DNA of 64,000 nt from Candidatus Sericytochromatia bacterium. Lineage in GTDB: Bacteria > Cyanobacteriota > Sericytochromatia > UBA7694. Below are positions 34,489-61,255 of the stretch, piece after piece (within the stretch, counting starts at the first letter, position 1; each line of letters opens with the position of its first letter). The notes under the pieces were generated by a model, which was not told the origin of the DNA, made no database searches, and saw only the letters and a program-made list of their open reading frames with translations. Made by a program: the position numbers and the translations under genes. The stretch spans positions 7,823 through 71,822 of the forward strand of contig JADMKE010000047.1 of the NCBI GenBank assembly GCA_018780035.1. The letters run 5' to 3'.

Positions 34489-34523
34489 AATTTTCTGACA
34501 GCAAGTAGCGGCAAGTCCTGATA
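34489..34523 (+). promoter_or_regulatory. bipartite locus motif, copy 1 (AATTTTCTGACA-N17-CTGATA)
   Basis: CTGACA at 34495..34500 and CTGATA at 34518..34523. It lies 55 nt upstream of ATG 34579. Confidence 0.45.
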
Positions 34524-34578
34524 GGGCCCGGTAGGTGGGAATGATTCAATAGAATTATCACCACTCACCGGAGGAAAC

Positions 34579-35196
34579 ATGAAAAAGATTCTGGCTCTGC
34601 TGCTGGCTTTAAGTGCCTGCCAAACCCTTCCCCTTAGTACCCCAACGGGAAACCCCTCAGTGGCGGACCGGCCACGCGAAACCACCCCGACGACTGAACT
34701 GGCAGCTTCCAGCCCCTCAGTTGAAACCGCTTTGGCCCCCCGTCCAGCACAAGGCCCCACTGTGGCCAAGAATGTGCCTCAATCTTCCCCAGCTGCCCGC
34801 GCAGTGAATCTTCCCACCACTGTCTCTGCTTCTGTTCCCAATACAGCCAATGTTGCACCTGTTGCAGCCCCCAAAACCCGCATCCCGATTGCCAGCTTAA
34901 ACGTGCCCAAGGGCTTTGATTATGCCACGACCCAAGATGTTCAGGTCGATATCCAGGTCAAGAGTCCCAACGGCAACCCCTACCAAAAAGTGATGGTTGC
35001 CATCTATGCCGTAGACAGCCAGGGTTTTAATCCCTTGGTACGCGGTGTGACCGATGCTGAGGGCCGTTATCAAGACCTGATGCGGATCCCTGGTTACCAT
35101 CAGGACTTGCAAATCCAGGTCTCTGCTCTGGGCATTGAAAATTACCAACGGGTCAAGATTGTCAACGATCAACTGATTGCTCAATTCGGAAATTAG
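34579..35196 (+). CDS. lipoprotein with a Pro/Thr/Ala-rich linker and a small beta-rich C-terminal domain
   Basis: Lipobox LLALSAC. The C-terminal segment KVMVAIYAVDSQGFNPLVRGVTDAEGRY is carboxypeptidase-regulatory-like. Confidence 0.6.
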   Translation: MKKILALLLALSACQTLPLSTPTGNPSVADRPRETTPTTELAASSPSVETALAPRPAQGPTVAKNVPQSSPAARAVNLPTTVSASVPNTANVAPVAAPKTRIPIASLNVPKGFDYATTQDVQVDIQVKSPNGNPYQKVMVAIYAVDSQGFNPLVRGVTDAEGRYQDLMRIPGYHQDLQIQVSALGIENYQRVKIVNDQLIAQFGN

Positions 35197-35208
35197 AGGG
35201 AAATAACC

Positions 35209-36891
35209 ATGAAAAAGACATTTAACGCTTTATCCATGCAACTTTCAAAAACCTACAGCCTGCTCAGCCTCAGTGGCTTGGCGCTCTTCAGCTTGCTGAC
35301 ACCCGCTCTTGCTGCTGATGTGTATAACTGGGAATTTTTGGCGGGCAATTACAAGGACAATTATGACGCCCAAGGCATTCCCAAGAATCTGGACCCAGCT
35401 CAGCGCAAAGAATACCCCAATGAATTCTGGACCCGACTTTCAGCTTCTCTGCCTGAACAATTGGACATTCGCAAAACCAGCCCCAGCAGCATAACTTCTG
35501 ACAAGTCTGCCAATTTACATATGTTGGAAGAAGGAGATGTCTTTGTGACCTTCTTGCACGAAGGAGCCGGTTACCGCAATAGTTTTGGCTATTTTGTCTA
35601 CGACAAAAACCAGCCCCCGACCAAGTTTGCAGAGATCAAAAGCACAATTGTGTTTCCCAATACCTCTTTTAATGGTTCTGGTGGCAATGCCCGTGGCCTG
35701 AAAAGTGGCGATACCCTTTATCTGGGAAGGTTTAAAGCGGGTCAGAGTTTGGGATTTGTGATTGCCTCTGATGGGTTTGACAGCACCGACGGGGTGCAGA
35801 AAAATCTCGACAGCAGCCGTATTTTTACCACCTTGAGCCAATTGAATCCTGAAAGTGATCCCAGTTTAAAAGCCCATACTGTTTTGCTCTATGATGAAGC
35901 GACCCAGCAGAGTGTTTTGGGCTTGGAAGACATGTTGCGCAGCAATGGCAGCTGTGATCACGATTTTAACGATGTGATTTTTACCCTCAGTGCCAACCCC
36001 CCCGAAGCGGTGGATATCTCGTCTATCAAACCTTTGCCCGAAGCCATTGATAGCGATAAAGATGGGGTATTAGACGCCAATGACAGTTTTCCCAAAGATC
36101 CATCGCGGGCTTTTTACCAGTATTATCCCGAGCAAGGGCAACGCAGCTCCTTGGTCTTTGAAGACAATTGGCCCGCCCAAGGGGATTATGATATGAACGA
36201 TCTGGTGTTGAACTACGCCTTTGAAAACACCACCAATAGCCAAGGCCAGGTCAAAGATATCTCTGTCAATTTTGAATTGGCTGCCCGAGGTGCCGATTTA
36301 CACAATGCCTTTGCCCTCGAAATTCCAGGGCTGGCTCCTGACAATCTCGACAAAGCTGAATTGATCATCGGCAATCAGAGCCAGGTGATACTCCCCGAAT
36401 CGGGACAGCGCAATGCCGTCTTTAACCTGATCGCAGATGCCAGTCGTTTTCTGCCCCAAGGCCAAGGGAAATGCCGCTTTTACAATACCCAAATTGGCTG
36501 TGAAACCCATCCCGGCCAGCAATTTCAGCTCAAATTGTCGCTCAAAACCCCCTTGGCCAAAACGCTGATTGGGCTCCCACCTTACAATCCCTTTATCTAT
36601 CGCACAGATCAACGGGGTTATGAAATTCATCTGCCCAATTACACACCCACCGATCGGGCCAGCAAATCGCTGTTTAAAACCCGTGATGATAATTCAGGCC
36701 CCAATAATTATTATAAAACAAAAAATAATTTGCCCTGGGCCTTAAATATTCCCAGTCAATGGGCTTATCCCTCTGAACAATCTGAAATCTCCAGTGCCTA
36801 TTTGGATTTTAAAACCTGGGCTGAATCCAGCGGTCAGAACAAACCCGACTGGTACCGCCAAAATACCCAAACCGATTTGATTTGGAAATAG
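35209..36891 (+). CDS. secreted DUF4114 / LruC-domain protein
   Basis: Signal peptide. DHDFNDVIFTL is DUF4114-like, and DYDMNDLVLNY plus the C-terminal region follow an LruC-like pattern. It has Asp-rich Ca-binding-like DSDKDGVLDANDSFPKD. Confidence 0.6.
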   Translation: MKKTFNALSMQLSKTYSLLSLSGLALFSLLTPALAADVYNWEFLAGNYKDNYDAQGIPKNLDPAQRKEYPNEFWTRLSASLPEQLDIRKTSPSSITSDKSANLHMLEEGDVFVTFLHEGAGYRNSFGYFVYDKNQPPTKFAEIKSTIVFPNTSFNGSGGNARGLKSGDTLYLGRFKAGQSLGFVIASDGFDSTDGVQKNLDSSRIFTTLSQLNPESDPSLKAHTVLLYDEATQQSVLGLEDMLRSNGSCDHDFNDVIFTLSANPPEAVDISSIKPLPEAIDSDKDGVLDANDSFPKDPSRAFYQYYPEQGQRSSLVFEDNWPAQGDYDMNDLVLNYAFENTTNSQGQVKDISVNFELAARGADLHNAFALEIPGLAPDNLDKAELIIGNQSQVILPESGQRNAVFNLIADASRFLPQGQGKCRFYNTQIGCETHPGQQFQLKLSLKTPLAKTLIGLPPYNPFIYRTDQRGYEIHLPNYTPTDRASKSLFKTRDDNSGPNNYYKTKNNLPWALNIPSQWAYPSEQSEISSAYLDFKTWAESSGQNKPDWYRQNTQTDLIWK

Positions 36892-36896
36892 GTCCG

Positions 36897-38411
36897 ATGG
36901 AAACCATACTGATTATCGAAGACGATCCAGATATTCAGGTCTTGTTGAAGACCTATCTGCGCAAAGCCAATTACCAGGTGAGCTTTGCTCCGACACTTGC
37001 GCTGGGGGTTGAACGCATGACTCAGCTCTCACCGGCGCTGGTTTTGTTGGATATCCATTTGCCCGATGGCAATGGACTCGATCTATTGCCCCAGCTTGCT
37101 GCAGATTCCACTCCCGTGGTCATGTTGACCGCTGAGAGCAGTAGCCTGGAGCAGGCTTTCGCCCTGGGAGCGGTTGACTATCTGCAAAAACCGGTCGTGA
37201 AAGGTGAGCTTTTGGCGCGGGTCAACCGGATTATTGCCAACCGCCGTTTGCATCAAGAGCAAGACAAATTATTGTTGGAATTGCAGGCCGATTTGGCCTT
37301 GGCCACCCAGGTGCAACAATTGAGTCTGCCTCACATCACTTCCCCTGATGCGCCCCTGGCGGTGGAGTGGATCTACCGCCCCTTAACCACCATCAGTGGC
37401 GATCTCTTGGCGGTATCTGCCCCCACTGAGCACAGTCGCTACTTTTGTCTGGGAGATGTCTCTGGCCATGGCATGGCTGCGGCTTTGGTGATGATGGCCC
37501 TGCGCAGCGCGTTTGATAGCTTGGTCAAAATGGCCCCCCGGGCCCCTTGGGAAATGATGCGCGATCTTTCCGAACGGATGAAAAACCTGCTCGATCGCCA
37601 TTATATAACCCTGGTGATTGGGCACCTGGATCTCGAATCGGGTTATCTCCAGATCTGCAATGCCGGACATCCTCCGGTTTTGCTGCGCAGAGCAGGACAA
37701 ATCCTGACCTTACAGGGCAAAACGGGGATGCCGATGGGTATTCAAGCGCCTGAACAGCTGGGCCCTGAGTATGATTTTCACACCCCATTAATGCCTGGAG
37801 ATGAACTCTTGCTTTGCAGTGACGGTCTGTTTGAAATGGGCCAATACAAAACAAAACAAGGTTTTGAGGCTTTGCAAACCTGTTTTGCCAACTGCCAAAG
37901 CCCCAGCTTAAGCGACACGGCTCAACAACTGGTTTCTGGCTTGCAGGCCGAGCAGCTGCCCAGTGACGATCTCAGTCTCTTAATCCTCAAATTACAAACC
38001 CTGACATTTAAAGTCAAAACCGCCGTAAACGCAGAGGCCATGGAAATGGCCGGTGAAGATCTCAAACTGTGGTTGCTGCAAATCAAATGCAACCAACGGA
38101 AAATCGAACAAATGAGCCTGATCTGGCTTGAATATTCAAACAATGTCTTGATTCACTCTCAAGCCAGTCAATTGGAGTTGGAAGCCCGTTTTGACCCCAC
38201 GGGCTTGACTCTGGTGTTTCGCGACAATGGCCAGGCCTGGGCCGTTGATTCAGACTTGGGTTTGCCAGATCCCCTGGCTGAATCTGGCAGGGGTCTTTGG
38301 CTGATTCAGCAGCTCAGCCAAGGGTTTCAACTCACGCGCAAAAATAATTTAAACCACCTTGAACTGACCTGTACACAACTCACTCAAATGGAGACCTTTA
38401 CCGATGTTTGA
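36897..38411 (+). CDS. REC - PP2C (SpoIIE-type) phosphatase - RsbW/SpoIIAB-like kinase fusion
   Basis: REC segment ILIIEDD...LVLLDIHLPDGNG. PP2C segment ISGDLLAV...CLGDVSGHGMAAALVM...CSDGLFE. C-terminal HATPase-like segment EYSNNVLIHS...FRDNG...GRGLWLIQQL. Confidence 0.8.
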   Translation: METILIIEDDPDIQVLLKTYLRKANYQVSFAPTLALGVERMTQLSPALVLLDIHLPDGNGLDLLPQLAADSTPVVMLTAESSSLEQAFALGAVDYLQKPVVKGELLARVNRIIANRRLHQEQDKLLLELQADLALATQVQQLSLPHITSPDAPLAVEWIYRPLTTISGDLLAVSAPTEHSRYFCLGDVSGHGMAAALVMMALRSAFDSLVKMAPRAPWEMMRDLSERMKNLLDRHYITLVIGHLDLESGYLQICNAGHPPVLLRRAGQILTLQGKTGMPMGIQAPEQLGPEYDFHTPLMPGDELLLCSDGLFEMGQYKTKQGFEALQTCFANCQSPSLSDTAQQLVSGLQAEQLPSDDLSLLILKLQTLTFKVKTAVNAEAMEMAGEDLKLWLLQIKCNQRKIEQMSLIWLEYSNNVLIHSQASQLELEARFDPTGLTLVFRDNGQAWAVDSDLGLPDPLAESGRGLWLIQQLSQGFQLTRKNNLNHLELTCTQLTQMETFTDV

Positions 38412-39657
38412 AAATTTAGTCATTCCACAAATTGTCCGTCGTTTTGACTTTGAAGAGTGGGGAGGCACCGAGTCTGTGGTCTGGGAGAGTTCTAAGAAAC
38501 TCAAAAGCTGGGGCGTTCAGCCCGAGATTCTCAGCACCCAGGCCTTGAACCCAACTGCCACAGAAGAGCGCGAAGGACTTCAGATCCAGCGTTTTGATTA
38601 CCACTATCCCTATTGGGGACTGACCGAGCAAAACCGACGCCAACTCGACAAAAAAGGTGGAAACCCCTTTGTTCCTGCCATGGAGAAGTATCTATTGGAC
38701 CTGCCTGGCTTGGATCTGCTGCACAGCCACGGAATGCAACGGATTGCAGGTTTGGTTCGGCGGGTCGCCCAAAAACGCAAGATTCCCTATGTGGTCTCGT
38801 TTCATGGGGGCAATCTGGAATTGCCAAGCTCAGAAATTGAACAAATGTGCTCCCCTGTCAAAGGCAGCTTTCATTTTGGCCGCATCTTTGATCCCTGGTA
38901 TGGCACAGACAAGGCTTTGGCAGAGGCCGATGCCTTGATTTGTGTGGGTTATAGCGAGTATCTCAAGACCCAAGCGGCTTACCCGAATCAACGGGTGGTG
39001 TACTTGCCCAATGGCGTAGAACCTGCGCGTTTTGAACAGGCACAGGGCAACCGTTTTAAACAGCAGTATGGTATTCCCCCCGAGTTGCGCCTATTGCTCT
39101 GTGTGGGCAGGATTGATCCTCAAAAGAACCAAGCCGTTTTACTCGAATTATTGCCTGAATTACCAGAAAATACAGGCCTGGTGTTAATTGGGCCTCCCAC
39201 CGATCCAGGGTATCAGGCAGAACTTGAAGAAACCATCCGTGCCAGGGGCCTTTCTCAGCGGGTGTGGCTGATTCCGGGTTTGAATGCCGATGATCCCCTT
39301 TTGGCTGATGCCTATGACGCAACCGAGATCTTTGTCCTGCCTTCGCGCCATGAACCCTTTGGCATTGTCGTCCTCGAAGCCTGGATGCGGCGCAAACCCG
39401 TTTTGGTCGCTGATCTGGGGGGCTTACAGCATTTGGTCAACGATGGGGTTACAGGGCTGCGGTTTGGGAATACCCGTGAGCTGGTTCAATCGGCCAAGGT
39501 ATTATTGCAAGAGCCCGCGTTTGCCCACTTATTGGGTGAAGCTGGCTATCACGAAGCCCTTTTAAATTATAGCTGGGAGACCGTTGCCCATCGGCTTTAT
39601 AGCTTGTACCTCGAATTGGTGCAAGAAAATTCCCACAGCAAAAGAAGGATCCCCTGA
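38404..39657 (+). CDS. GT4 glycosyltransferase
   Basis: C-terminal EPFGIVVLEAWMRRKPVLVADLGGLQHLVNDGVTG (E-x7-E region). It overlaps the upstream gene by 8 nt. Confidence 0.85.
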   Translation: MFENLVIPQIVRRFDFEEWGGTESVVWESSKKLKSWGVQPEILSTQALNPTATEEREGLQIQRFDYHYPYWGLTEQNRRQLDKKGGNPFVPAMEKYLLDLPGLDLLHSHGMQRIAGLVRRVAQKRKIPYVVSFHGGNLELPSSEIEQMCSPVKGSFHFGRIFDPWYGTDKALAEADALICVGYSEYLKTQAAYPNQRVVYLPNGVEPARFEQAQGNRFKQQYGIPPELRLLLCVGRIDPQKNQAVLLELLPELPENTGLVLIGPPTDPGYQAELEETIRARGLSQRVWLIPGLNADDPLLADAYDATEIFVLPSRHEPFGIVVLEAWMRRKPVLVADLGGLQHLVNDGVTGLRFGNTRELVQSAKVLLQEPAFAHLLGEAGYHEALLNYSWETVAHRLYSLYLELVQENSHSKRRIP

Positions 39658-39709
39658 CAGTTTATTTCCCTGCTCTTTGTCAAAATAAAAGTAGGAGGAA
39701 TTTTAACTT

Positions 39710-40426: not shown

Positions 40427-40437
40427 AGGAGAAACCT

Positions 40438-41652: not shown

Positions 41653-41787
41653 ATTGTTTGTGATACGCCCATTGCAGCACTATTTAACTGTCTAACTTTA
41701 CTGGATTTATTGACTTTTTTCGTGTAAACTTCAACCCTGAGTTATCTAAAAAAGTTAAGTTAAAATGTGTGAGTCAGTTAAGTAAGT

Positions 41788-42398
41788 TTGACAAATGGGC
41801 GCAATATGTTTAGTTTAAAGAATCAAAAGCAGTTTTGTCTTCAACGGTTTGTCTATACGCGGCACATTTTGCAAGCCTTGGTTGATTTTCATGAAAGTGG
41901 AAAACTGCACCTGGCTTTAACACCCGCCCATATTTTAATCGATGGGGATTCGGTTCAAATTATTGCTGCCCTTGATTCTGAAAAATTACTCTATGATGCG
42001 CAGCGCTACGCAGCCCCTGAGTTACTCGTTCAAGTGGGAATGAGCGAACAGACAGATTTGTATGCCCTGGGGAGGATTCTGTTTGAGGCTTGGTCAGGGG
42101 TTTTGCCTGATGAGAAGGAGAACCCGCTGCCCAGTTTGACGCAATTTTTACCTGAATTGCCCCCTGGTTTGGACCGGTTTTTCCAAACTTTAATGGCCCC
42201 CCAGCTTCAAGACAGATATCCAAATGTAGAAAGCGATCTTTATGCTTTTTAGGCGTTTGAGGCTTATTTTTATCCTTTAGAGAGACGTTCTTTGTTATTG
42301 GGCGCAAACAGGAATTAAAGCAACTGAATAATTGGCTTGATGCCTCCAACCGTGGCATTTATTTTATTCAGGGCCAGCCTGGTGTCGGCAAATCTGCT
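41788..42398 (+). pseudogene. decayed 5' portion of a kinase-AAA-GAF-histidine-kinase gene: a degenerate protein-kinase C-lobe, an in-frame TAG, and a frameshift before the P-loop
   Basis: ORF 41788..42252 aligns to Ser/Thr kinase subdomains VIa-XI, with HRD replaced by LALTPAHIL and DFG replaced by AALDS. It has no N-lobe. The TAG is at 42250. The P-loop GQPGVGKSAL is encoded at 42372..42401 in the frame of the downstream ORF, upstream of any canonical start. Confidence 0.5.
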
Positions 42399-45300
42399 TT
42401 GCTCCAAGAAGTTTTATCTCAAAGAACTTATTTGAGTGGTAAATTTCAGCAGGCCATGAAATATACCCCCTCATATGCTGTTTTTATTGAGTCAATGCAG
42501 TCATTTTTGCGTTTTTTACTCAGTCTTTCTCTGTCTGAACGTTTGGTTTGGAAAGAAATTTTCCAAATTGAAATGGGCCTTTCCGCTCAAGTCCTTTTTG
42601 AAACCCTGCCTGAACTGGCTCTCATTTTAAATGAGACCAGCCAGACCCAGTTCAGTGGCAATTTGATCTTGGAAAATCCCTTTAACAGGGCTTTTGCCCA
42701 ATTATGGCAAGTGGTCAGTTCTCACCAACAGCTGATCGTCTGGTTAGATGATGTTCAATGGGCCGATGACAGTTCTTTGCATTTTTTCCGACAACTCTTC
42801 CCCTTAAATATCCTGTGGTTGATCAGCGGCAGAGAGATACAGCTCTTTCGGCAACAGAGTGAAAGTTCAGGGGATTTGAACGCTGAATTACTTGTGCTCA
42901 GTTCTTTCGAACCCCAATCCACCCATCTCTATTTGCAAGAAGCTTTGGGGGCCAGTTTTTCAGAAACAGAGTCTCTGTTGCCCGTTTTACAGGATTTAAC
43001 CCTAGGCAATCCGCTTTATCTTAAAGTGAGTTTGGAAGATTTTAAACGCCGAAAATTATTGACCTTTCAACCTGAACTTGGGGTTTGGAGCTTGAATTGG
43101 TCTGGTGAAAGGACCCAAAACAGTTTCTCAGAACAGATTTTACAAGACATGATTGGGCGCCAAGTGGCCGCTTTTTCTGAGCTTGAAAGGGCATTATTGG
43201 GGATCGCAGCTTGTTTGGGAGCCCGTTTTGCATATCTGGCACTCAAAACCTGTTTTTTGCAAATGCTGACAAATAGCTCTGTCACAGATTTGAAACAGGC
43301 GTTGTCTACCTGTGTGCGTGCAGGTTTTTTGCATCTCGATCAACCTGGCTTTTACCGTTTTGCCCATGATCGCCTGCACGAATGGATTCATTTGAGCTTT
43401 TCAGCCGAAGAAAGCACCCAATTTCGTTTAAAAACAGGCCGCGTGCTTTTGAATTTAAAAGGTCCACACTCATTGACGGGCTTGGCCGAAACCTTAAACC
43501 CTGTATATCAATCCCTTGATCCAGAAGAATTGACTTTGTTAATCGATGCCAATTTGGAATTGAGTGATCAGGCCTTAAAAAAAGGGGCCCAGGCAGAAGC
43601 GTTGGCGTTTTTAAGTGCTGTCCAATTGATGGCCTCAGAACAGCCTTTCAGTCCTGAACAAGAAATTAAAACTCTGGCCTTGATGGCTTTTTTGGATTAT
43701 CTCAAAGCAGATTTAAGCAATTCAGAACGCAAGCTCAAAAGTCTATTAAACAAATTCCCCGATGCCAATTTAACCGATGTCTATGTGCTGCTGGTGATCC
43801 TCTACACCCAGCAGAATCGCTATCAAGAAGCGGTTGAATTTACGGTGACGATCTTAAACCAAGCCGGGTTAGCGATTTCCCAGGAACCGGCCCAAATCGA
43901 AGCCCTGTTTTCAGGCTGTATTCAAACACTCAGCCGGTCGGTGCCCTCAGATCTATTGGATTTGAGTCTGCGCCCATCGAGCCCGGCTTTTGCAGATATC
44001 TTGCGTTTATTTGCTACATCGACCGCTGCTTTTTACAATTATCAACCTGAATTATTTGGGCTCTATGTTTTGTATTTCCTCGACCAAATTTTGCACCATC
44101 AGGGCGCGCCACAGTCCGGGATTATTTATGCTGCCAGTATTATTCTGGTAATGGCCCAAACAGACTTGGTATCTGTGGCCTGTTTGTTAGCCGATGGAGG
44201 CCTTTTAACGGCCCAGAGCTGGGGTCATTTGGATGAGTTGGCGGTTTTACATTGCGTGATTGGCGATTTTTTGGCCCCTTGGCACCAGGCCTATCGGCAG
44301 GCCTGTTCACATTTTGAAAGTTCCTGGCGGGCAGGATTACAGTCGGGGAATTTGCAATTTGCGGGTTATTCTCGCGTGTTTAAAGGGGCAAATCTGTTTT
44401 TATCAGGGTTTTCCCTTGAAGACTTCCAAACCAAAGAACTTCCTGCCATGTTGGCTTTTAATGCAACCATCCAAAATTTTTCTCCATTGGATGGCTTAAC
44501 TGGATATGCCTTACTTTTACATGCCCTGCGGCAAGAAGCTGAATGTTTTGACCTGCCGAATCAAACGGAGGCCGATTATATTGCGCTGATTCGGGGTCGG
44601 GGAAGTCAAGCGGATTTGTCCAGGTATTTTTCGTTTAAAGCATTTGTGCTCTTGCTTTATGGTCAGATTGAAACTGCGGCAGAAAACTATCGTCAAGCTG
44701 ACAATCTGCGCTATTTACAGGGTTCAGTGGTCAATGTCTTACATCTGTTTACGGGCTTAATTCTGGCTTTGCGCCGGGGTGAAAGTTTAGACACAGACGC
44801 CCATGCGGCTTCATTGCAAAAACTCAATCAATTGGCAGAGCGCTGCCCCGAAAACTTTGGCCCACTCATGGCTTTGGTGATTGCAGAAGATCCCGCTCAG
44901 GCCAATCAACCACGCATTGAAGCCTATGAAAGGGCTGTGACCCTTGCCAGGCAAGAAAAACTCAGCCATATCGAGGCCTTTGCCCTGGAATCTGAGTCCC
45001 GTTTTTGGCAACTTCAGGCTTTGCCCCGTTTGGCCGAACGGGCACTTTTTGAATCTGCTTTGGCGTATCAAAGCTGGGGAGCGACTGAAAAAGTCAATCA
45101 ATTATTGTTGCAATTTCCGCAACGATTAAAATTGCAGTACGAACAACATGTGCAACTTCCACATGCCGATTTGGATTTGGATCTTTTGATGCAAATTTCT
45201 GCTCTCTTTGCCCAGACCACCAAACAAGAAGAACTCTTGGCTGCGATTATGACGATCTTACAGACCCAAACAAAAGCCGAAAAAATGGCTTTGTTTATTG

Positions 45301-46439
45301 CCCCCGAAACAGCCACAGAAGTCACGGAGTGGACCTGTTTGGCCCATTTTGACCAAGGACAATTGCATTTGCAAGAGCGACCCCTCGATGCCGTTTGGCC
45401 CTTGGCTTTGATTCGCTATGTGGTTCAGACCTTGCGGATTGTGCGTTTGCCTCGGCATCTGGAGGAGTTGAATCAGATTCCTGAGGCCCGGAAACTCCAG
45501 GGTTCTCACTTTTTTCTGCCTTTGATTTTGCAAAACCGGCTGACGGGACTGATCTATCTTTGTTCAGAAAGCAATCCAGAGGCCTTTAATCTGCGCTCAG
45601 AACTTCTGCTCAAAGCCCTGGCTGGACATATTGCCAGCTCTTTGACCAATGCCCGAATGTATCACCAATTGGAAGCGACGATATTGGAGCGCACCCAGGA
45701 TTTACAGAAGGCCAATCACGGACTCACTCTTTTGCTGGAAGAGCGGCAACATGTGATTGCCATGGCGGCTCACGATCTTAAACACCCATTGGGCACCTTG
45801 ACCTTGGGGGTTTCTTTGCTCGAACAGATGCATGAACAATTAAGTCCTCAAGACCGGCAAGCGGCTTTTCTGAACTTAAAAAAGACCCTGTCTGACATGA
45901 ATGGCAATACCGAACGCTTGCTGCTGGCTGAAAGCTTGGATTTTGGCGGTCTTGAAGTGCATGTGCAACCCATCTCCCCCAAAGCTGATATTTTGCCCTG
46001 GTTCAGCCCTTATCAATTCCGGGCACAGGAAAAACAAATTGAATTCCAATTGTTTGGTTTTGAAACCCCTCAATGCATCTATACAGATCCGATTTTGTTT
46101 CGGCACATAGTTGAAAATCTCTGTTCAAATGCGCTCAATTTTTCACCCTTTAAGCGCAAGGTCAGGCTGTTCTTTGAGTGTTCGGCTGAGACCTTTGCCT
46201 TTGCTGTCGAAGACCAAGGGCCCGGTATTCCCGTGGATGAGCAGCCCAAATTATTTCAAAAATTTTCCAGATTAACGCCTCGGCCCACGGCTGGGGAAAG
46301 TTCTAGTGGATTGGGGCTGTTTATTGTCAAACAATTGGTGGAGATATTCCAGGGAAAGATTGTTGTTGATTCGGAGATTGGGCGGGGAACCCGGATCCAG
46401 GTACAGCTTCCCAATGCTCACAAGAACCTCACAATTTGA
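42399..46439 (+). CDS. large sensor histidine kinase (AAA/STAND-like ATPase region - helical repeats - GAF - HisKA - HATPase_c)
   Basis: Walker-B-like LIVWLDDVQWADDSSL, then a long helical region. The GAF-like segment is around LLMQISALFAQT...LPLILQNRLTGLIYL. H-box MAAHDLKHPLGTL; ATPase GLGLFIVKQLVE...GRGTRIQV. The frame is open from 42261. The start is uncertain. Confidence 0.75.
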   Translation: MLQEVLSQRTYLSGKFQQAMKYTPSYAVFIESMQSFLRFLLSLSLSERLVWKEIFQIEMGLSAQVLFETLPELALILNETSQTQFSGNLILENPFNRAFAQLWQVVSSHQQLIVWLDDVQWADDSSLHFFRQLFPLNILWLISGREIQLFRQQSESSGDLNAELLVLSSFEPQSTHLYLQEALGASFSETESLLPVLQDLTLGNPLYLKVSLEDFKRRKLLTFQPELGVWSLNWSGERTQNSFSEQILQDMIGRQVAAFSELERALLGIAACLGARFAYLALKTCFLQMLTNSSVTDLKQALSTCVRAGFLHLDQPGFYRFAHDRLHEWIHLSFSAEESTQFRLKTGRVLLNLKGPHSLTGLAETLNPVYQSLDPEELTLLIDANLELSDQALKKGAQAEALAFLSAVQLMASEQPFSPEQEIKTLALMAFLDYLKADLSNSERKLKSLLNKFPDANLTDVYVLLVILYTQQNRYQEAVEFTVTILNQAGLAISQEPAQIEALFSGCIQTLSRSVPSDLLDLSLRPSSPAFADILRLFATSTAAFYNYQPELFGLYVLYFLDQILHHQGAPQSGIIYAASIILVMAQTDLVSVACLLADGGLLTAQSWGHLDELAVLHCVIGDFLAPWHQAYRQACSHFESSWRAGLQSGNLQFAGYSRVFKGANLFLSGFSLEDFQTKELPAMLAFNATIQNFSPLDGLTGYALLLHALRQEAECFDLPNQTEADYIALIRGRGSQADLSRYFSFKAFVLLLYGQIETAAENYRQADNLRYLQGSVVNVLHLFTGLILALRRGESLDTDAHAASLQKLNQLAERCPENFGPLMALVIAEDPAQANQPRIEAYERAVTLARQEKLSHIEAFALESESRFWQLQALPRLAERALFESALAYQSWGATEKVNQLLLQFPQRLKLQYEQHVQLPHADLDLDLLMQISALFAQTTKQEELLAAIMTILQTQTKAEKMALFIAPETATEVTEWTCLAHFDQGQLHLQERPLDAVWPLALIRYVVQTLRIVRLPRHLEELNQIPEARKLQGSHFFLPLILQNRLTGLIYLCSESNPEAFNLRSELLLKALAGHIASSLTNARMYHQLEATILERTQDLQKANHGLTLLLEERQHVIAMAAHDLKHPLGTLTLGVSLLEQMHEQLSPQDRQAAFLNLKKTLSDMNGNTERLLLAESLDFGGLEVHVQPISPKADILPWFSPYQFRAQEKQIEFQLFGFETPQCIYTDPILFRHIVENLCSNALNFSPFKRKVRLFFECSAETFAFAVEDQGPGIPVDEQPKLFQKFSRLTPRPTAGESSSGLGLFIVKQLVEIFQGKIVVDSEIGRGTRIQVQLPNAHKNLTI

Positions 46440-46574
46440 GTTGATATTGAGGCTTTCAAGCCCCTCTACTCTTGAACTATGCCAAGTTCTGAATTAGCGT
46501 GATGATATTCGGACAATTGTGGTCTTTAATATTGCGGCCCTGAAATTTTATCAACTTGTTTTGAGGTACCTATT

Positions 46575-48719: not shown

Positions 48720-48770
48720 ACCCCCTATTATGAACCAGACTTCAACTGCTTGACAAATTATTTCACGCGT

Positions 48771-51481: not shown

Positions 51482-51538
51482 ACTGTGTTTACCTCCGAGA
51501 CTTCTATTACCAGCTTAAGTCTCAGGCCCGTGTGAAAG

Positions 51539-51573
51539 AATCAGACTTTAAGCCCTTTCAGTGTCGGACTTTT
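51539..51573 (-). promoter_or_regulatory. bipartite locus motif, copy 5 (minus strand AAAAGTCCGACA-N17-CTGATT)
   Basis: The plus strand has tgtcgg at 51562..51567 and aatcag at 51539..51544. It lies 57 nt upstream of ATG 51481. Confidence 0.4.
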
Positions 51574-52937
51574 CTGACGGCCAAACGTGAGCCTAGCCTG
51601 GGCCCTGGAGTTTGTTTCTGAGACTGTCTTTCTAATCTTTCCAAGACCAGGATCAGGGCGAAGACCAGCATCAATTGGTAAAAATTATTCGATTGTTTGA
51701 GCACCCATTCAAAACAGGTTTCGAGATAAATCGAGACCTGCCCAGCGGCCAAACCCAACGCCAGTGCCTTGTATACGGGGTTCTGGGCTTTAAAAAAGAG
51801 CCGAAAAGCCCGAAACGCAAATCCCCAGAGCAGAATCACATAGAGGGCCAAACTGTGCCAACCGGCCTCAGCTGCCACCATCAGGTAAGCCGTTTCCACC
51901 AATCCGCCTTTTTCCTCTTCCTCTTCGGGATCATTGCTCTCTTTGCGGGGAATGTGGTCCCCATAGGGGTAAGGGGGGTTGATCTTGAGGCCAAAATTGT
52001 TTAAACCAATGCCGAGGGGTTTGTCGGCCACCATGCGCAGGGCGGCAATGGCCAAAACCTGACGCACCTCCATCGACTCTTCGGGAGCTGTTTCAAAGCG
52101 CTCGTGAATGGAGTCGCTGGCTTTCCAAGCAATGGCTCCCCCCATGGTCAAGGCCAAGAGCAGCACAGCCGTTTTACGCAGGCTGATCTGGCTTGGGGTA
52201 TACGAAAATACAAAAACCAAAGCCAGTCCCAAGGCCAAAAACAACATCCCGCCACGGGAGAAGGTAAACACAGTGCACAACATGCCCACGGCCAAAAGTC
52301 CCAGCCAAAACAGACTGATAGCTGCAGAGCTGCGCTTTTGATTGAGTACATATGAAAAGAGCAGGCAGTTGAACAAATTGACATACATGACCAATGAGTT
52401 TTGGTGCGGAAAGGGCCCTTTGGCCTGCCACATACCCATGCGGTATTTTTGGTTGAGCATTTCATAAAAGATATACAACATGACCAATGCCACGGCCCTT
52501 AAAAACCACTGCAATTGTCTGGGGTTTTGAATCCAATGGCTCACAACCCAAAAAAGCAGGTACATTCTCACCATCTTAAACAGCTCAAAGGCCACAAACA
52601 GTGGCTCTCCGGCATTGACCACCGAGAGGGCTGAAAAGGCAAAATAGAGCCAAAAGACCGTCGAACCTGGCGGCCAAGGGGTGAGTTTGAACTGTTGCCG
52701 TCTGAGCCACAGGGCCCCCAACATACCCAGCGCCAAGATATCGATCAAAGAGACCTCAAAGCCTTTGGCAGTGCCCCTGTAAAACTCCATTGAAACAAAG
52801 TTAATATCCACGGTTTTTACAGTTAAAAAGACCAAGAGTGGAATCACGGCATTGCGCAATCGTGCTGAACGCGACAAAACCAGTGCCAGCAAAGGGGTTC
52901 CCACCACCAAAAAGGCAAAAAACGCCAGGTATTTCAT
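51558..52937 (-). CDS. O-antigen polymerase/ligase family membrane protein (Wzy-like)
   Basis: More than 10 TM segments. FTFSRGGMLFLALGLAL is a Wzy_C-type segment, and there is a large periplasmic-type loop. The start is taken at ATG 52937, which forms an ATGA overlap with the acetyltransferase stop. Confidence 0.7.
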   Translation of the reverse strand: MKYLAFFAFLVVGTPLLALVLSRSARLRNAVIPLLVFLTVKTVDINFVSMEFYRGTAKGFEVSLIDILALGMLGALWLRRQQFKLTPWPPGSTVFWLYFAFSALSVVNAGEPLFVAFELFKMVRMYLLFWVVSHWIQNPRQLQWFLRAVALVMLYIFYEMLNQKYRMGMWQAKGPFPHQNSLVMYVNLFNCLLFSYVLNQKRSSAAISLFWLGLLAVGMLCTVFTFSRGGMLFLALGLALVFVFSYTPSQISLRKTAVLLLALTMGGAIAWKASDSIHERFETAPEESMEVRQVLAIAALRMVADKPLGIGLNNFGLKINPPYPYGDHIPRKESNDPEEEEEKGGLVETAYLMVAAEAGWHSLALYVILLWGFAFRAFRLFFKAQNPVYKALALGLAAGQVSIYLETCFEWVLKQSNNFYQLMLVFALILVLERLERQSQKQTPGPRLGSRLAVRKVRH

Positions 52938-53542: not shown

Positions 53543-53616
53543 CTTCGGCCTCCTAAAAAAAGTGCTGGCCGGTTTACCCGGCTGTGTTAAGCATAAAGGT
53601 TGCCTCCAAGCAAAAC

Positions 53617-53651
53617 ATTCAGCTTTTTGTGACAGGGCCTGTCAGAATTTT
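53617..53651 (-). promoter_or_regulatory. bipartite locus motif, copy 6 (minus strand AAAATTCTGACA-N17-CTGAAT)
   Basis: The plus strand has tgtcag at 53640..53645 and attcag at 53617..53622. It lies 74 nt upstream of ATG 53542. Confidence 0.4.
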
Positions 53652-53700
53652 CCCAAACTTGAATCAGGGCAAGAGGGGGCCGGACTTCTGGTGAGGAGGG

Positions 53701-56653: not shown

Positions 56654-57846
56654 ATACATGCCTCCTGAAGGGAATTTGGAATTTGGATCAACTGTTGAAA
56701 GGCTGGGATCAATCGGCTGAGATGGTGTTCGATTCTGAAGTGTTTTTGCCACATCGAAAAGCCGTTTTGGCCCAGGCGAGAGGCCAAATCTGGATTCTGT
56801 CCAAGGCGGCGGATGGCGTAAGCCAAGGCTTGAATATTGCCGCTGGGAAAGAGCAGGCCATTGACACCCGGTTTAAGCCAGGTGCGCACCCCACCGACAT
56901 CGCTGCTGATCACGGCCCGCCCGGCAGCCATGGCCTCGACCCCTGTCAGGGCAAAGGTCTCTGGCGCACGGCTGGGAATAATGACGGCCGCTGAGCTTGC
57001 GAGCCAGTTAGACAATTCATGCGGGGCCAGTTGCCCCAAAAATTTCACCCGATCATTTAATCCCAGCTTCAGGGCTTGTGCTTGGTAATCCGTAGCTTGG
57101 CGGCCTTCTCCGGCAATCACCAGTTGGGCTTGGGGCACCAGCACCAGCGCTTCGAGCAAAAGATCGAGCCCCTTGCCTGTGACCAATTGGCCCACAAATA
57201 AAAATTGCAGGGGATGTTTCACCGGGGTGGGCAAAGATTTTACAGTGGGCTCTGCAAAGAGGGGGGCTGTCAGGATGCGTTTGCTGTTAAAGCCATGGGC
57301 TTCAATGTGATTGGCAAAATAATCCGAAGCCACCACCGCCAGATCCAAGCGTTGGTTAATGGCCAAATGGCTTTTCATGGGCCCCAGGGTGCGCAGGGCC
57401 AAGCCCTCTTCCTCGCGGACAACCAGACCGGGGCAGAGATAACAGTGGGCTCCCAGGGTGCGGCTGCAGGTCTGTTTGCCAAAGCCTGTGTATTTGTGTT
57501 CACGCAGGCAAAAGAGTTGGTGATCGTGGTAAAAACGCACCAGCGGGATCCCTGTGTCTAACAGGCTTTCCAGATCTTTGCCCCAGGAAGCGCGCGCTCC
57601 GGGTTGGCGGTGGAGATAGATCAGATCGGGTTGGATTTGTTTGACTTGTTTGGCAAGCTCTACAGCTGGCCAAGCCTGTTCGAAGGCATTGAGAAAAGCC
57701 GGTTGGCTGTGTCCCGGGCCATAGAGCAGGGATGATTGAAAACCGTGGGCTTTGAGGGCCGGCGCTACCTGGGTCAGATAGCGTTCGGCACCGCCGGTGC
57801 CACGGGCCCGGTCATGAATCCAGAGTAATTTGATTGGGTTGGGCAT
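56650..57846 (-). CDS. GT4 glycosyltransferase
   Basis: N-terminal GTGGAERYL. C-terminal PETFALTGVEAMAAGRAVISSDVGGVRTWLKPGVNG. Confidence 0.85.
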   Translation of the reverse strand: MPNPIKLLWIHDRARGTGGAERYLTQVAPALKAHGFQSSLLYGPGHSQPAFLNAFEQAWPAVELAKQVKQIQPDLIYLHRQPGARASWGKDLESLLDTGIPLVRFYHDHQLFCLREHKYTGFGKQTCSRTLGAHCYLCPGLVVREEEGLALRTLGPMKSHLAINQRLDLAVVASDYFANHIEAHGFNSKRILTAPLFAEPTVKSLPTPVKHPLQFLFVGQLVTGKGLDLLLEALVLVPQAQLVIAGEGRQATDYQAQALKLGLNDRVKFLGQLAPHELSNWLASSAAVIIPSRAPETFALTGVEAMAAGRAVISSDVGGVRTWLKPGVNGLLFPSGNIQALAYAIRRLGQNPDLASRLGQNGFSMWQKHFRIEHHLSRLIPAFQQLIQIPNSLQEACI

Positions 57847-57894
57847 GTTTCTTTCCTCCTGACTCCAGCCTAACCGCTAGCGCCAGGGCAAAAG

Positions 57895-57928
57895 AATCAG
57901 CGGATGCTGGCTTTTGCGTCAGAATTTT
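57895..57928 (-). promoter_or_regulatory. bipartite locus motif, copy 3 (minus strand AAAATTCTGACG-N16-CTGATT)
   Basis: The plus strand has cgtcag at 57917..57922 and aatcag at 57895..57900. It lies 48 nt upstream of ATG 57846. Its -35-like half is part of the perfect palindrome at 57918..57933. Confidence 0.45.
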
Positions 57929-57945
57929 CTGACCCCCCAAGCGGG

Positions 57946-57978
57946 TATTCTGACAATTTTCAGGGTCAGGCTCTGACT
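57946..57978 (+). promoter_or_regulatory. bipartite locus motif, copy 2 (TATTCTGACA-N17-CTGACT)
   Basis: CTGACA at 57950..57955 and CTGACT at 57973..57978. It lies 57 nt upstream of ATG 58036. Confidence 0.45.
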
Positions 57979-58035
57979 GCTTTCAGGCCTGCTCTGCCAG
58001 GATAATCAAGGTATCCAAAACACTGAGGTGAAAAT

Positions 58036-59196
58036 ATGAAACGCAAATTGGCCCTGTTTACCTTCTTCGACGCCCTGGGCTGGGAAATCTACAAACACTA
58101 TGGTTTTATGGCTGACGAAGTGCGCGATGCCCGCCCTTTGCAAACCGTCTTTGGTTTTTCTTCAGCCGCAGACCCGAGCATACTCTCGGGTCAGTACCCC
58201 GAAGCCCATGGGCATTGGTCGAGCTTTATCTACGATCCAAAAAACTCCCCCTTTAAACTGATGAATATGGTCAAACACCTGCCCCGCAGCCTCTTCGACC
58301 GCTGGCGGGTGCGGCATTGGCTGAGCAAATTATTGGCCAAGGCCTATGGCTTTACCGGGTATTTTGAAATTTATTCAGTGCCTTTTGGGGTATTGCCCCA
58401 TTTTGACTATCTCGAAAAACGGGATTATTTTGTGCCGGGGGGTATTTTAAAGGGCGACACCATTTTTGATTGGTTGAGTCAACGGGGCATTGCCTATCAC
58501 TGCTCCAATTGGCGTTTGTCTGAAACAGAAAACCTGGCCGCGCTCCAGCAAGAGATATCCAAAGGCGAGATCCAATTTGCCTATCTCTATTTGCCCGCCC
58601 TGGATGGTTTGATGCATGGGGTGGGCACGCGTCACGCCAAAGTGGCTGAGAAACTGCGCTGGTACGAAGGGGAAGTGAAAAAAATCTTGGCCCAGGCCCG
58701 CGAAAACTACGATGAAGTGAGCTTTTATGCCTTCTCGGATCATGGCATGGCAGATGTGGTGGGCAGTGTTGATCTGATTGCCGTGATCGAGAAACTCGGC
58801 TTAAAATTTGGCCAAGATTATGTGGCCATGTACGATTCCACCATGGCCCGTTTCTGGTTTCCCAACCCAGCTGCACGGGCCCAGATCGAACAGGCGCTGG
58901 CCCAAGTGCCCGAAGGCCGGGTCTTGGCTGGGGCAGACCTCAAACGCTGGCACTGTGAGTTTGGTGATACCCGGTTTGGTGAGCTGATCTTTTTGCTCAA
59001 ACCCGGTCTGCTGATTGTGCCCAGCTTTATGGGGCTCAAAGCCATTCCCGGCATGCACGGCTATGATCCCAGCCACAAAGATTCTTATGCCTGCGTGCTT
59101 TCCAACCGGGTCTTGCCCAAAAACATCCACGATTTAACCGATCTGAGAGGCCTGATGGAGGCCGAGATCAAACAGGGTTTGGAGGTTGGCGTATGA
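58036..59196 (+). CDS. alkaline-phosphatase-superfamily protein (nucleotide pyrophosphatase/phosphodiesterase-like)
   Basis: FDALGWE, FGFSSAADPSILSGQYPEAHG, FSDHGM and GMHGYDP are AP/NPP-type metal-site segments. Confidence 0.75.
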   Translation: MKRKLALFTFFDALGWEIYKHYGFMADEVRDARPLQTVFGFSSAADPSILSGQYPEAHGHWSSFIYDPKNSPFKLMNMVKHLPRSLFDRWRVRHWLSKLLAKAYGFTGYFEIYSVPFGVLPHFDYLEKRDYFVPGGILKGDTIFDWLSQRGIAYHCSNWRLSETENLAALQQEISKGEIQFAYLYLPALDGLMHGVGTRHAKVAEKLRWYEGEVKKILAQARENYDEVSFYAFSDHGMADVVGSVDLIAVIEKLGLKFGQDYVAMYDSTMARFWFPNPAARAQIEQALAQVPEGRVLAGADLKRWHCEFGDTRFGELIFLLKPGLLIVPSFMGLKAIPGMHGYDPSHKDSYACVLSNRVLPKNIHDLTDLRGLMEAEIKQGLEVGV

Positions 59197-61085
59197 AACC
59201 CCAAGCCTTGCTTTATGTTGCGATGCCTTATGATCAGGGCAAATCGGGGATCTCCGAATACATCCGAGCCACTTTGAGCGAATTGTCAAAACTTTCCCCG
59301 ATTCAGCTGATCGCTTTAAAATCTGATCTGCCTGAATTAACCCCCTGTTTGGCACCGGGTGCTCACCAAATCATCGCCTTGAACCTACTTTGGGGGAACC
59401 CCCTGTTGTCTTTGCTCTGGTTTTTGCTGGTCTTGCCTTTTCGTTTGCGCAAATTAGCCCCCCGTGGGGTCTTTATTCCTGCCGGCAATCGCCGCTTATT
59501 GCTGCAAAAGGCCTTTCCCCAGATCACCACCATTCACGATCTGGCCCCTTTGCGCCTGACGAAAAAATACGATCCCCTGCGCCAATTTTATCTCACCCGG
59601 CTGCTGCCAAATATGTTAAAGCGCGCAGGCAAATTGGTGGCGATCAGCCAGCAGACCGCCGACGACTTAATTGAATTGGCAGGCATAGCGCCTGATCAGA
59701 TCGCTTTGGCAGCCAATGGTTATAACGCAAGTCGCTTTCTGCCAGCGTCTGCCGCTGACGATTTTGAAAGGCTCAGGTCTTTGGGCTTGATGCAGTCAGA
59801 GACCACACCGACAGATTATCTGCTCTATGTGGCGCGCATTGAACATCCTGGCAAGAACCATATTGGCTTATTAGAGGCTTGGATGGCTTTGCCTGCGGCC
59901 TTGCGGAAGCAGAATACCCTTGTATTGTGCGGCAGCGATTGGAAAGGTGCCGAGGTTGTGCATCAATGGGTTGCGGCCCATCAACCTGAAAACGTGATCT
60001 TTACAGGCTTTGTCTCCGAGGCGGATTTACCTGCCCTCTATCGCCATGCCCAGCTCTACCTTCAGCCTTCACTTTATGAAGGTTTTGGTCTGCCCTTGGT
60101 CGAGGCCATGGCTTCGGGCTGCCCTGTTTTGAGTTCCAATCGGGGGGCCTTGCCAGAGGTCGGGGGCGATGCCGTCTGTTTGGTGGACCCTTTAGAAGCG
60201 GGGGCCTTGGCCATGGCTTTGCTGAATTTGCTGACAGACCCGGCAGCCCGCAAGCAGTTGGCCGACAAGGGCTTGCGCAGGGCGCAGGCCTTTAGCTGGG
60301 AGCGCCATGCCCAGATTGTCCTCCAGGGATTGGCTCCCTCACCCTCCCTGCGTCTCCAGGGGTTGAATCTGCGCAATGGTCATCTGACTGAGGTGTTGGC
60401 AGAAATGGCCGAGCGCATTCGCTCCCGCATCCCGACCCGCCTGTTTTACGTCAATGCAGACTGCCTCAATTTGGCCTGGTCAGACCGGGATTATCGCCAG
60501 GCCTTACAAACGGCCGATCTGCTTTTGCCCGACGGCAGTGGGGTGGCCTTGGCGGCCCGCCTGACAGGTCAAAGCCTGATTGAAAACCTCAATGGCACAG
60601 ACATGTTTGTGCCCCTGTGTGATAAAGCGATTGAAAACGGCTGGCGCGTCTGGTTTTTGGGCGGAAGGCCCGAGGTCAACGAGGCTTTGTATGAGAATCT
60701 CAAACAGCGCAAGCCTGCCTTGCAGATTGCCGGACACCACCATGGCTATTTTGATCCCCAGACTGAAGCTGAAATTGTGGCAAAGATCCGGGCCGATCAA
60801 CCTGATTTGCTCTTTGTGGCCATGGGGGCTCCGCATCAAGAGCGTTGGATTTCCAAATATGCTGATGTCTTGCAAGTGCCCATCATGCTGGGGGTCGGCG
60901 GTCTGTTTGACTTCTATTCGGGCCGTATTCCGCGTGCGCCATTGATGCTGCGCAAATTGGGTCTGGAGTGGACCTGGCGACTTTTACAAGAGCCCCTGCG
61001 GCTCTGGCAGCGTTATTTAATTGGCAATCCCCTGTTTGTGCTGCGCACATTGCGCACAGGCCGACAGTCCCCCCTGCGCGTGTGA
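59193..61085 (+). CDS. bifunctional glycosyltransferase: N-terminal GT4 fused to a C-terminal WecG/TagA/CpsF (GT26) domain
   Basis: GT4 segment LYEGFGLPLVEAMASGCPVLSSNRGALPEVGGDA. GT26 segment FYVNADCLNLAW...LLLPDGSGVALAARL...FLGGRPEV...LLFVAMGAPHQERW...GVGGLFDFYSGRIPRAP...GLEWTWRLLQEP. There is an ATGA overlap with the upstream gene. Confidence 0.85.
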   Translation: MKPQALLYVAMPYDQGKSGISEYIRATLSELSKLSPIQLIALKSDLPELTPCLAPGAHQIIALNLLWGNPLLSLLWFLLVLPFRLRKLAPRGVFIPAGNRRLLLQKAFPQITTIHDLAPLRLTKKYDPLRQFYLTRLLPNMLKRAGKLVAISQQTADDLIELAGIAPDQIALAANGYNASRFLPASAADDFERLRSLGLMQSETTPTDYLLYVARIEHPGKNHIGLLEAWMALPAALRKQNTLVLCGSDWKGAEVVHQWVAAHQPENVIFTGFVSEADLPALYRHAQLYLQPSLYEGFGLPLVEAMASGCPVLSSNRGALPEVGGDAVCLVDPLEAGALAMALLNLLTDPAARKQLADKGLRRAQAFSWERHAQIVLQGLAPSPSLRLQGLNLRNGHLTEVLAEMAERIRSRIPTRLFYVNADCLNLAWSDRDYRQALQTADLLLPDGSGVALAARLTGQSLIENLNGTDMFVPLCDKAIENGWRVWFLGGRPEVNEALYENLKQRKPALQIAGHHHGYFDPQTEAEIVAKIRADQPDLLFVAMGAPHQERWISKYADVLQVPIMLGVGGLFDFYSGRIPRAPLMLRKLGLEWTWRLLQEPLRLWQRYLIGNPLFVLRTLRTGRQSPLRV

Positions 61086-61129
61086 AGCGCGTTTATACAG
61101 CGTTTTGTCGACTTTTTACCTCAGACTTT

Positions 61130-61153
61130 GGCGGCTTTCGGGCCGCTTTTTTT
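61130..61153 (+). terminator. rho-independent terminator
   Basis: GCGGC (61130..61134) pairs with GCCGC (61141..61145) around a 6-nt loop TTTCGG, which reduces to a TTCG tetraloop if T61135 and G61140 wobble-pair. Eight Ts follow. It lies 45 nt after the stop at 61085. Confidence 0.7.
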
Positions 61154-61221
61154 TGTGTGGGTTTGTTGATGGGGGTTGTTTATGATTTTCGGGATGGGTG
61201 TGTTCATTCCAGACTGTAGGG

Positions 61222-61255
61222 ATTTTCTGACAAGCGAAGACACAAGCCTCTGATA
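61222..61255 (+). promoter_or_regulatory. bipartite locus motif, copy 4 (ATTTTCTGACA-N17-CTGATA)
   Basis: CTGACA at 61227..61232 and CTGATA at 61250..61255. It lies 60 nt upstream of ATG 61316. It matches copy 1 at ATTTTCTGACA and at CTGATAGG. Confidence 0.45.

Follow-up and report, generated by a model that had tools for sequence, protein, structure and literature searches.

A putative promoter module with a 7-2-7 palindrome precedes every operon of a polysaccharide locus in Sericytochromatia and is probably read by a locus-encoded NarL/FixJ-type regulator

What reads the two-box motif that recurs along a 64,000-nucleotide stretch of Candidatus Sericytochromatia DNA (contig JADMKE010000047.1, positions 7,823 to 71,822; this whole stretch is called the window below)? 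Sericytochromatia are an uncultured, non-photosynthetic sister class of the cyanobacteria, and a limited literature search found no cis-regulatory signals described for them. According to Pfam, the genes concerned belong to a Wzx/Wzy-type polysaccharide locus. A preliminary description had listed six copies of the motif and had proposed that an alternative sigma factor reads its boxes as a promoter or, failing that, that they are the sites of a dedicated activator, the factor in either case not being encoded in the window. If true, the sigma factor reading would give this class a polysaccharide locus whose sigma regulon is under the control of a partner switch. We find that the two boxes are parts of a longer, conserved module, and we suggest that the modules are probably activator-dependent, housekeeping-type promoters that are read by a NarL/FixJ-type regulator encoded in the locus and that make up an autoregulated two-component regulon.

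All six copies were recovered. The pattern TC[TC]GAC[AG]-N16/17-CTGA, run over both strands of the 64 kb, returned the same six sites (34494+, 57949+, 61226+, 57923-, 53646- and 51568-) and no others, and 6/6 face the gene downstream, as had been described. This recurrence is far beyond chance: the N17-only form of the pattern matched five times, compared to an expectation of 0.07 per 64 kb from 100 dinucleotide shuffles, none of which gave as many as five. While the six copies stood, their total did not, as a weight matrix finds eight modules in the window. The two further copies, at 31133+ before manC and at 39631+ before the Bac_transf gene, came to light with a relaxed pattern and then with the matrix; the one before manC is missing from the pattern matches because its heptamer is TCTCAGA. 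The matrix was trained solely on orthologous sites of other genomes, with the window sites left out. It scored the eight modules at 26.8–45.6 bits; the next independent position reached 7.9 bits, and the maximum in 30 Markov-simulated 64-kb sequences was 16.2 bits. Every operon of the approximately 32-kb polysaccharide locus, eight operons in all, has one module, in agreement with the earlier proposal of one copy per transcription unit. The matrix found zero modules in a variable insert at 41.7–48.7 kb, and a scan of the DNA flanking the locus in related contigs gave none. An isolated palindrome-like sequence, GTCAAAGATTCCTGACA, lies within the kinase gene at 33573 on the minus strand (14.6 bits for block 1 of the module alone); it has neither box 2 nor a -10 hexamer and is probably a chance occurrence.

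An alignment of 34 sites, taken from the window and from non-redundant relatives (five or six genomes), delimits a module of about 75 bp with four conserved blocks, between which the spacer columns are at zero information. Orthologous sites are not fully independent of each other; the randomised spacers within this alignment provide an internal control. Block 1 (box 1) is a 7-2-7 inverted repeat, GTCAGAA-AA-TTCTGAC(A), whose right half is the TCTGACA that had been taken as the first box. Block 2, the former second box (box 2 below), reads CTGA(T/C)(A/T)G and follows the palindrome after 17 nt (sometimes 16). Block 3 is a hexamer, T-A-n-R-M-T, 19 nt (sometimes 20) past box 2, and block 4 is Y(-1)A(+1), present in 30 of the 34 sites exactly 7 nt past the hexamer. 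In sequence, blocks 3 and 4 correspond to a putative sigma-70-type -10 element with its start site. The eight modules of the window, with their parts named in these terms, are:

Module M, 31123..31196, plus strand, before the manC/HisKA_3 kinase/NarL-type regulator operon (ATG 31230), 30.6 bits: palindrome GTAGGAAATTTCTCAG at 31123-31138; box 2 CTGACAG at 31157-31163; candidate -10 CAGAAT at 31184-31189; predicted start 31196.
Module A (copy 1 of the preliminary description), 34484..34557, plus strand, before the operon for a 205-aa protein, an LruC-domain protein, a REC-PP2C-kinase and a GT4 enzyme: palindrome TGGAGAATTTTCTGAC; box 2 CTGATAG at 34518-34524; atypical candidate -10 TTCAAT at 34545-34550; predicted start 34557.
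Module G, 39621..39693, plus strand, before the Bac_transf priming transferase gene (ATG 39710), overlapping the stop codon of the GT4 gene at 38404-39657, 39.9 bits: palindrome GCAAGAAAATTCCCAC; box 2 CTGACAG at 39654-39660; candidate -10 CAAAAT at 39681-39686; predicted start 39693.
Module E (copy 5), 51505..51578, minus strand, before the GT4/flippase operon (ATG 51481): palindrome GTCAGAAAAGTCCGAC at 51578-51563; box 2 CTGATTC at 51544-51538; candidate -10 TAAGCT at 51517-51512; predicted start 51505.
Module F (copy 6), 53583..53656, minus strand, before the hexapeptide transferase/Wzy operon (ATG 53542): palindrome TTGGGAAAATTCTGAC; box 2 CTGAATG at 53622-53616; candidate -10 TATGCT at 53595-53590; predicted start 53583.
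Module C (copy 3), 57860..57933, minus strand, before the GT4/406-aa protein/deacetylase/GT2 operon (ATG 57846), 45.6 bits: perfect palindrome GTCAGAAAATTCTGAC at 57933-57918; box 2 CTGATTC at 57900-57894; candidate -10 TAGGCT at 57872-57867; predicted start 57860.
Module B (copy 2), 57939..58013, plus strand, before the phosphodiesterase/GT4-WecG operon (ATG 58036), 26.8 bits: weak left half AAGCGGGTATTCTGAC; box 2 CTGACTG at 57973-57979; candidate -10 GATAAT at 58001-58006; predicted start 58013.
Module D (copy 4), 61216..61289, plus strand, before the STAS operon (ATG 61316), 44.9 bits: palindrome GTAGGGATTTTCTGAC; box 2 CTGATAG at 61250-61256; candidate -10 TAGACT at 61277-61282; predicted start 61289.
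Terminator-like hairpin, 61130-61147, plus strand: GGCGGCTTTCGGGCCGC followed by a T run, strong and the best of the region, between the GT4-WecG gene and module D.

The STAS operon is taken as a separate unit because this terminator-like hairpin lies just upstream of module D. In the divergent intergenic region between modules B and C (57918-57954), 21 bp, or about two turns of the helix, separate the centre of the module C palindrome from that of box 1 of module B, so that each of the two promoters also has the other's site near -86.5.

In block 1, C1 and A4 are invariant, and G-6 and C5 each occur in 33/34 sites. The left half is conserved along with the right, degeneracy can affect either of them, and the matrix gives hits on the two strands at shared sites. 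Symmetrising the halves yields the heptamer consensus GTCAGAA, in which the fifth position is G at 0.96, and the centre of the palindrome stays A/T-rich even in genomes of 62–64% GC. A palindrome could in principle fold into a short hairpin, which would suit an element acting in the RNA, as a leader hairpin or in a riboswitch-like manner. We find this hardly credible, given that many sites have one degenerate half unable to pair and that the -10 and start signature would put the palindrome upstream of the transcript; an Rfam scan of the whole window returned no family match.

Columns and spacings in the remaining blocks are similarly constrained. The C, G and A of box 2 are invariant and its T is present in 30/34 sites; A2 of the hexamer occurs in 31/34 and T6 in 34/34, the three A2 exceptions being module A orthologues with TTnAnT. 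In module C of the window and in that of the related locus L007, a 16-nt first spacer goes together with a 20-nt second spacer, and the distance from palindrome to hexamer is therefore kept. Counting from the predicted start A, the centre of the palindrome falls at -65.5 (range -64.5 to -66.5) and box 2 covers -39 to -33, or -40 to -34 for modules B and C. The predicted leaders measure 14–41 nt and have GGAGG ribosome-binding sites at their ends. The alignment columns hold no TTGACA-like -35 element at 16–18 nt from the hexamer, and a sigma-70 consensus promoter scan of 50.5–62 kb called 0/5 modules. Box 2 was itself considered as a sigma-70 -35 element and rejected: CTGAYA matches TTGACA at 4–5 of 6 positions, but its spacer to the -10 would be 21 bp, compared to a usual range of 16–19 bp.

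These features also bear on the direction of control. The modules could be repressor operators: a regulator occupying box 2 and the palindrome would block the promoter or draw it into a loop, and its release would bring about induction; indeed, box 2 overlaps the position at which sigma region 4 would be expected to make contact. However, the lack of a -35 element and the weak -10 hexamers are typical of activator-dependent promoters, not of strong promoters held down by a repressor, and the main site, with its predicted centre at -65.5, would lie upstream, about where NarL can activate. We therefore consider repression very unlikely.

Conservation in orthologous loci, which the preliminary description had named as a test of the motif, was found throughout. 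Syntenic loci were fetched from relatives (60–98% protein identity, 50–64% GC; designated by L numbers here), and the motif stands at every orthologous intergenic position, with unrelated sequence between the boxes. Orthologues of module M precede manC in L012, L013 and L016; module A is kept in L010, L012, L013, L014 and L015, and module G in L010, L012, L013 and L016; orthologous sites of modules E, F and B are present in L002, L003, L007 and L009. In the rearranged loci L014, L015 and L016, modules are found at the new operon starts, including that of an operon that now holds the kinase and regulator genes. In the window, L012, L013, L014 and L016, a module precedes the operon of the regulator itself. 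In two more distant relatives, L014 (11632-15224) and L015 (1029-4534), no REC-PP2C-kinase gene separates the LruC-domain gene from the GT4 gene, and the modules persist. L014 retains the STAS gene and has a catalase gene inserted between the regulator and module A.

With the module thus delimited, the sigma factor reading can be weighed. In this reading, a dedicated extracytoplasmic function (ECF) or group-3 sigma factor, possibly released by a partner switch, would recognise TCTGACA as its -35 and CTGAnn as its -10 element, and transcription would start 5–12 nt past box 2. The locus encodes two partner-switch proteins, listed here as context and not as proposed readers of the motif:

REC-PP2C (SpoIIE)-HATPase_c_2 partner-switch enzyme, 36882..38411, plus strand (Pfam).
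STAS-domain protein, the partner-switch substrate, 61301..61672, plus strand (Pfam; anti-sigma-factor-antagonist superfamily in NCBIfam).

The presence of these genes within the locus counts for a sigma factor, as do the fixed 16–17 nt spacing, the invariant C-G-A core of box 2 with its nearly constant T (30/34) and the TCTGA-like -10 cores known in some ECF promoters. What had been assigned as a -35 element is, however, one half of a conserved symmetric palindrome whose left half is conserved too, and this symmetry weighs against a -35 role, for which a palindrome would not be expected. A sigma factor reading both boxes would also leave unexplained the canonical -10 hexamer and Y-A start, which stand at a fixed distance 19–33 nt past box 2. 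By contrast, the 34-site alignment shows no conservation 5–12 nt past box 2, where the start had been placed; the predicted -10 lies 19–20 nt past box 2, which itself falls at -39 to -33. Moreover, the modules were kept in the arms of L014 and L015 from which the REC-PP2C-kinase gene is gone, and in Vibrio fischeri and Anabaena, which have the best-studied pair of polysaccharide partner switches (see below), the STAS protein does not work via a sigma factor. Pfam detected no sigma-factor domain in the tested open reading frames (ORFs) of the window, a set that excludes ORFs 189-557, 11480-13330 and 14338-17760, or in the called genes of related contigs, the sole sigma-like match being a weak Sigma70_r4_2 hit on the GerE domain of the NarL/FixJ-type regulator. 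We consider it very unlikely that an ECF or group-3 sigma factor uses the boxes as its -35 and -10 elements, and just as unlikely that a dedicated sigma factor, released by the REC-PP2C-kinase/STAS switch, reads both boxes, possibly alongside a regulator-dependent promoter. A SigF-type promoter (-32 TAGGC/-12 GGTAA) was also examined and rejected, there being no GGTAA-like element at the required distance.

Which factor, then, would bind the palindrome? It had been thought to be encoded outside the window, but a conserved NarL-type regulator gene lies directly upstream of copy 1, together with that of its kinase:

NarL/FixJ-type response regulator (REC + GerE helix-turn-helix, 208 aa; Pfam), 33833..34459, plus strand; the proposed reader of the palindrome.
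Cognate soluble kinase REC-HisKA_3-HATPase_c (Pfam), 32649..33836, plus strand.

The nearest solved relatives of the regulator are VraR and NarL. No NCBIfam equivalog model scores it above the cut-off; it reaches 142 bits against the NarL model (cut-off 250) and 82 bits against the RcsB model (cut-off 235). The kinase, which is 67% identical to its L012 orthologue and adjoins the regulator in all loci examined, has an N-terminal receiver domain and is devoid of a sensor domain; it probably acts downstream of another kinase in a phosphorelay. In L016 (13621-14661), a single fusion protein combines the priming sugar transferase (Bac_transf) with an Hpt phosphotransfer domain, which hints that a phosphorelay may touch the enzyme directly as well.

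The NarL/FixJ-type regulator is the only DNA-binding regulator that is conserved with the locus. The kinase-regulator pair is linked to the locus in nine related contigs, rearranged ones included. The order manC, kinase, regulator, module A, 205-aa protein, LruC-domain protein, REC-PP2C-kinase, GT4, module G, Bac_transf, GT4 is the same in the window, L012 and L013, and recurs in L010 and L011, as far as those truncated contigs reach. Orthologues of the regulator form a group of 67–100% identity, three more distant members of which (69–76%) belong to the rearranged loci L014, L015 and L016; the next matches, generic regulators of other phyla, are at approximately 58%. The regulators of the window and L012 share 81% identity, compared to approximately 50% for the adjacent 205-aa proteins. 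Across the orthologue group, the recognition helix of the regulator, LSEKT[VI]STYQSRIL, does not vary, and outgroups have a different one. Other candidates were rejected. The OmpR-type regulators of the window and L012 are 29% identical and encoded at different places, and the genes for the XRE, FIST and TetR neighbours are not conserved with the locus. The site GTCA-N8-TGAC, attributed to the cyanobacterial regulator NrrA, is not used as evidence.

The same module anatomy could also be served by an unlinked dimeric factor, for instance one of CRP/FNR-like or XRE-like type, as GTCAG-N6-CTGAC also fits the 5-6-5 geometry typical of other dimeric factors and the tie to the regulator is one of co-occurrence only. 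We regard such a factor as unlikely, since the NarL-type pair is kept in every version of the locus, including the rearranged ones, with an invariant recognition helix and a module of its own, and no other DNA-binding gene is conserved nearby.

From the observed anatomy and conservation of the modules and their co-occurrence with the regulator, we infer start sites, binding, activation rather than repression and a role for box 2 as follows. The phosphorylated regulator would bind the 7-2-7 palindrome as a dimer, about 65.5 bp before the start, and a further subunit or dimer would bind the related heptamer nnCTGA(T/C) at -39 to -33, where the -35 element is missing. More speculatively, this lone heptamer might allow the regulator's helix-turn-helix, which resembles sigma region 4, to replace the missing -35 contact. 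The bound regulator would then recruit polymerase with a primary-type sigma factor to the weak -10, T-A-n-R-M-T. As the manC-kinase-regulator operon has the same module, it would be subject to positive feedback. The REC-PP2C-kinase and STAS proteins more likely represent a separate, post-transcriptional layer of control. The fallback of the preliminary description, a dedicated activator, is thus the better reading, and its view of a locus-specific transcriptional control motif before each operon is supported.

Several points weigh against a regulator-dependent promoter of this kind. The organism is known only from metagenome assemblies, the starts are predicted from the hexamer and the Y-A signature, and the regulator is linked to the palindrome by co-localisation and co-conservation, which fall short of proof of binding. 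Module A and its orthologues have TTnAnT in place of TAnnnT, and module M has TC at the predicted start. In addition, box 2 has no convincing left partner: a second, proximal 7-2-7 site centred at -42.5 was considered and rejected, as the expected offset scores best but with a mean log-odds of still only -6.25, and box 2 is treated as a lone heptamer.

The proposed arrangement can be compared to several known systems. NarL recognises inverted heptamers in a 7-2-7 arrangement, and one such site suffices for activation when it lies at -44.5, -66.5 or -77.5 (PMC9314961). At Escherichia coli NarX/NarL promoters of the ogt and yeaR type, the sites are likewise two inverted 7-bp elements 2 bp apart, and the functional position of -66.5 compares with a predicted centre at -65.5 from the predicted start here; in both systems, a REC + GerE regulator is partnered with a HisKA_3 kinase, here linked to the sites. 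The heptamers differ, that of NarL being TACYYMT and that found here GTCAGAA; furthermore, the present modules serve polysaccharide synthesis, not nitrate respiration, and have an extra lone heptamer at -39 to -33.

A regulator of the NarL/FixJ family also controls enterobacterial exopolysaccharide operons, via the RcsAB box TAAGAAT-ATTCTTA (PMC7298118; the box is also credited to Wehland and Bernhard 2000, as cited in PMC5758874). As proposed here, the Rcs system combines an inverted repeat with a NarL/FixJ-family regulator for capsule genes (colanic acid, K antigen), and autoregulation of rcsA parallels module M. The two sites have a common core, AGAA-WW-TTCT, CAGAAAATTCTG and AAGAATATTCTT matching at 9/12 positions. 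Unlike in the Rcs system, the regulator is distant from RcsB and has no RcsA-like partner, only the core of the 14-bp box is common, and each operon of the locus is preceded by a box whose distance to the -10 is fixed.

In the syp locus of V. fischeri, each operon has the same activator site, read by the locus-encoded response regulator SypG, and a partner switch of SypE (kinase, REC, PP2C) and SypA (STAS) acts post-transcriptionally, not via a sigma factor (PMC4517449). The present locus shares with it one site per operon, here a putative activator site, and a locus-encoded kinase/PP2C and STAS switch. However, SypG is a sigma-54 enhancer-binding protein and the syp promoters are of the sigma-54 type, compared to a sigma-70-type -10 here, and the domain order REC-PP2C-kinase differs from that of SypE. 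No Sigma54_activat domain was detected in the Pfam-tested ORFs of the window (three long ORFs lay outside this set) or in the called genes of related contigs; -24/-12 elements were not separately scanned. Within the cyanobacterial lineage, HenR, a REC-PP2C phosphatase, and the STAS protein All4160 of Anabaena control heterocyst polysaccharide via a biosynthetic enzyme, not a sigma factor (bioRxiv 10.64898/2026.04.08.717354). This likeness concerns the protein switch and not a DNA motif, and it is drawn by domains, not by orthology.

An autoregulated two-component regulator that drives an exopolysaccharide locus is already well known; what is new is the operator and regulon in an unstudied lineage. 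The module offers a testable regulon of eight operons with a defined operator, predicted starts and a candidate regulator, and gives evidence for an ordinary TAnnnT -10 in Sericytochromatia promoters. It may also serve as a sequence tag with which to find the same polysaccharide system in metagenomes. In addition, it warns against concluding that there is an alternative sigma factor solely from a partner-switch gene pair and a two-box motif.

The enzymes of the locus, as assigned by Pfam, comprise glycosyltransferases, a Bac_transf priming transferase, a Wzy-like polymerase, a flippase, a deacetylase, an acyltransferase and a phosphodiesterase. Closest named relatives of the locus proteins are from Candidatus Sericytochromatia, and a genome scan also found a Candidatus Blackallbacteria assembly at 98% identity; a plasmid database held no near match to 24 kb of the locus. 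The first genes behind module A (window 34579-36891, plus strand) encode a lineage-specific 205-aa protein that matches no family, followed by a DUF4114/DUF4842 (LruC-domain) protein. The 205-aa protein has eight homologues in a set of 5.8 billion proteins, and all those with a named source organism or on fetched contigs are from Sericytochromatia.

A variable cassette of signalling genes, which has no module, separates the two arms of the locus; it is located at 41.7–48.7 kb in the window, at 17038-20621 in L012 and at 7848-11023 in L010. In the window, it encodes a Ser/Thr-kinase-STAND-histidine-kinase, an OmpR-type regulator and an XRE-type helix-turn-helix protein. The cassettes of L002/L012, L014 and L016 encode a PAS hybrid kinase with Hpt, joined in L002/L012 and L016 by a FIST protein, and that of L007/L010 has TetR and ferredoxin/SCP2 genes. 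At 41788-46439 (plus strand) of the window, a large Pkinase/AAA_16/GAF/HATPase gene is broken into ORFs 41788-42252 and 42399-46439 by an in-frame stop codon (Gln in L013) and then a frameshift. Its L013 counterpart is a single intact ORF of more than 1100 aa, and the broken copy is either a pseudogene or an assembly error.

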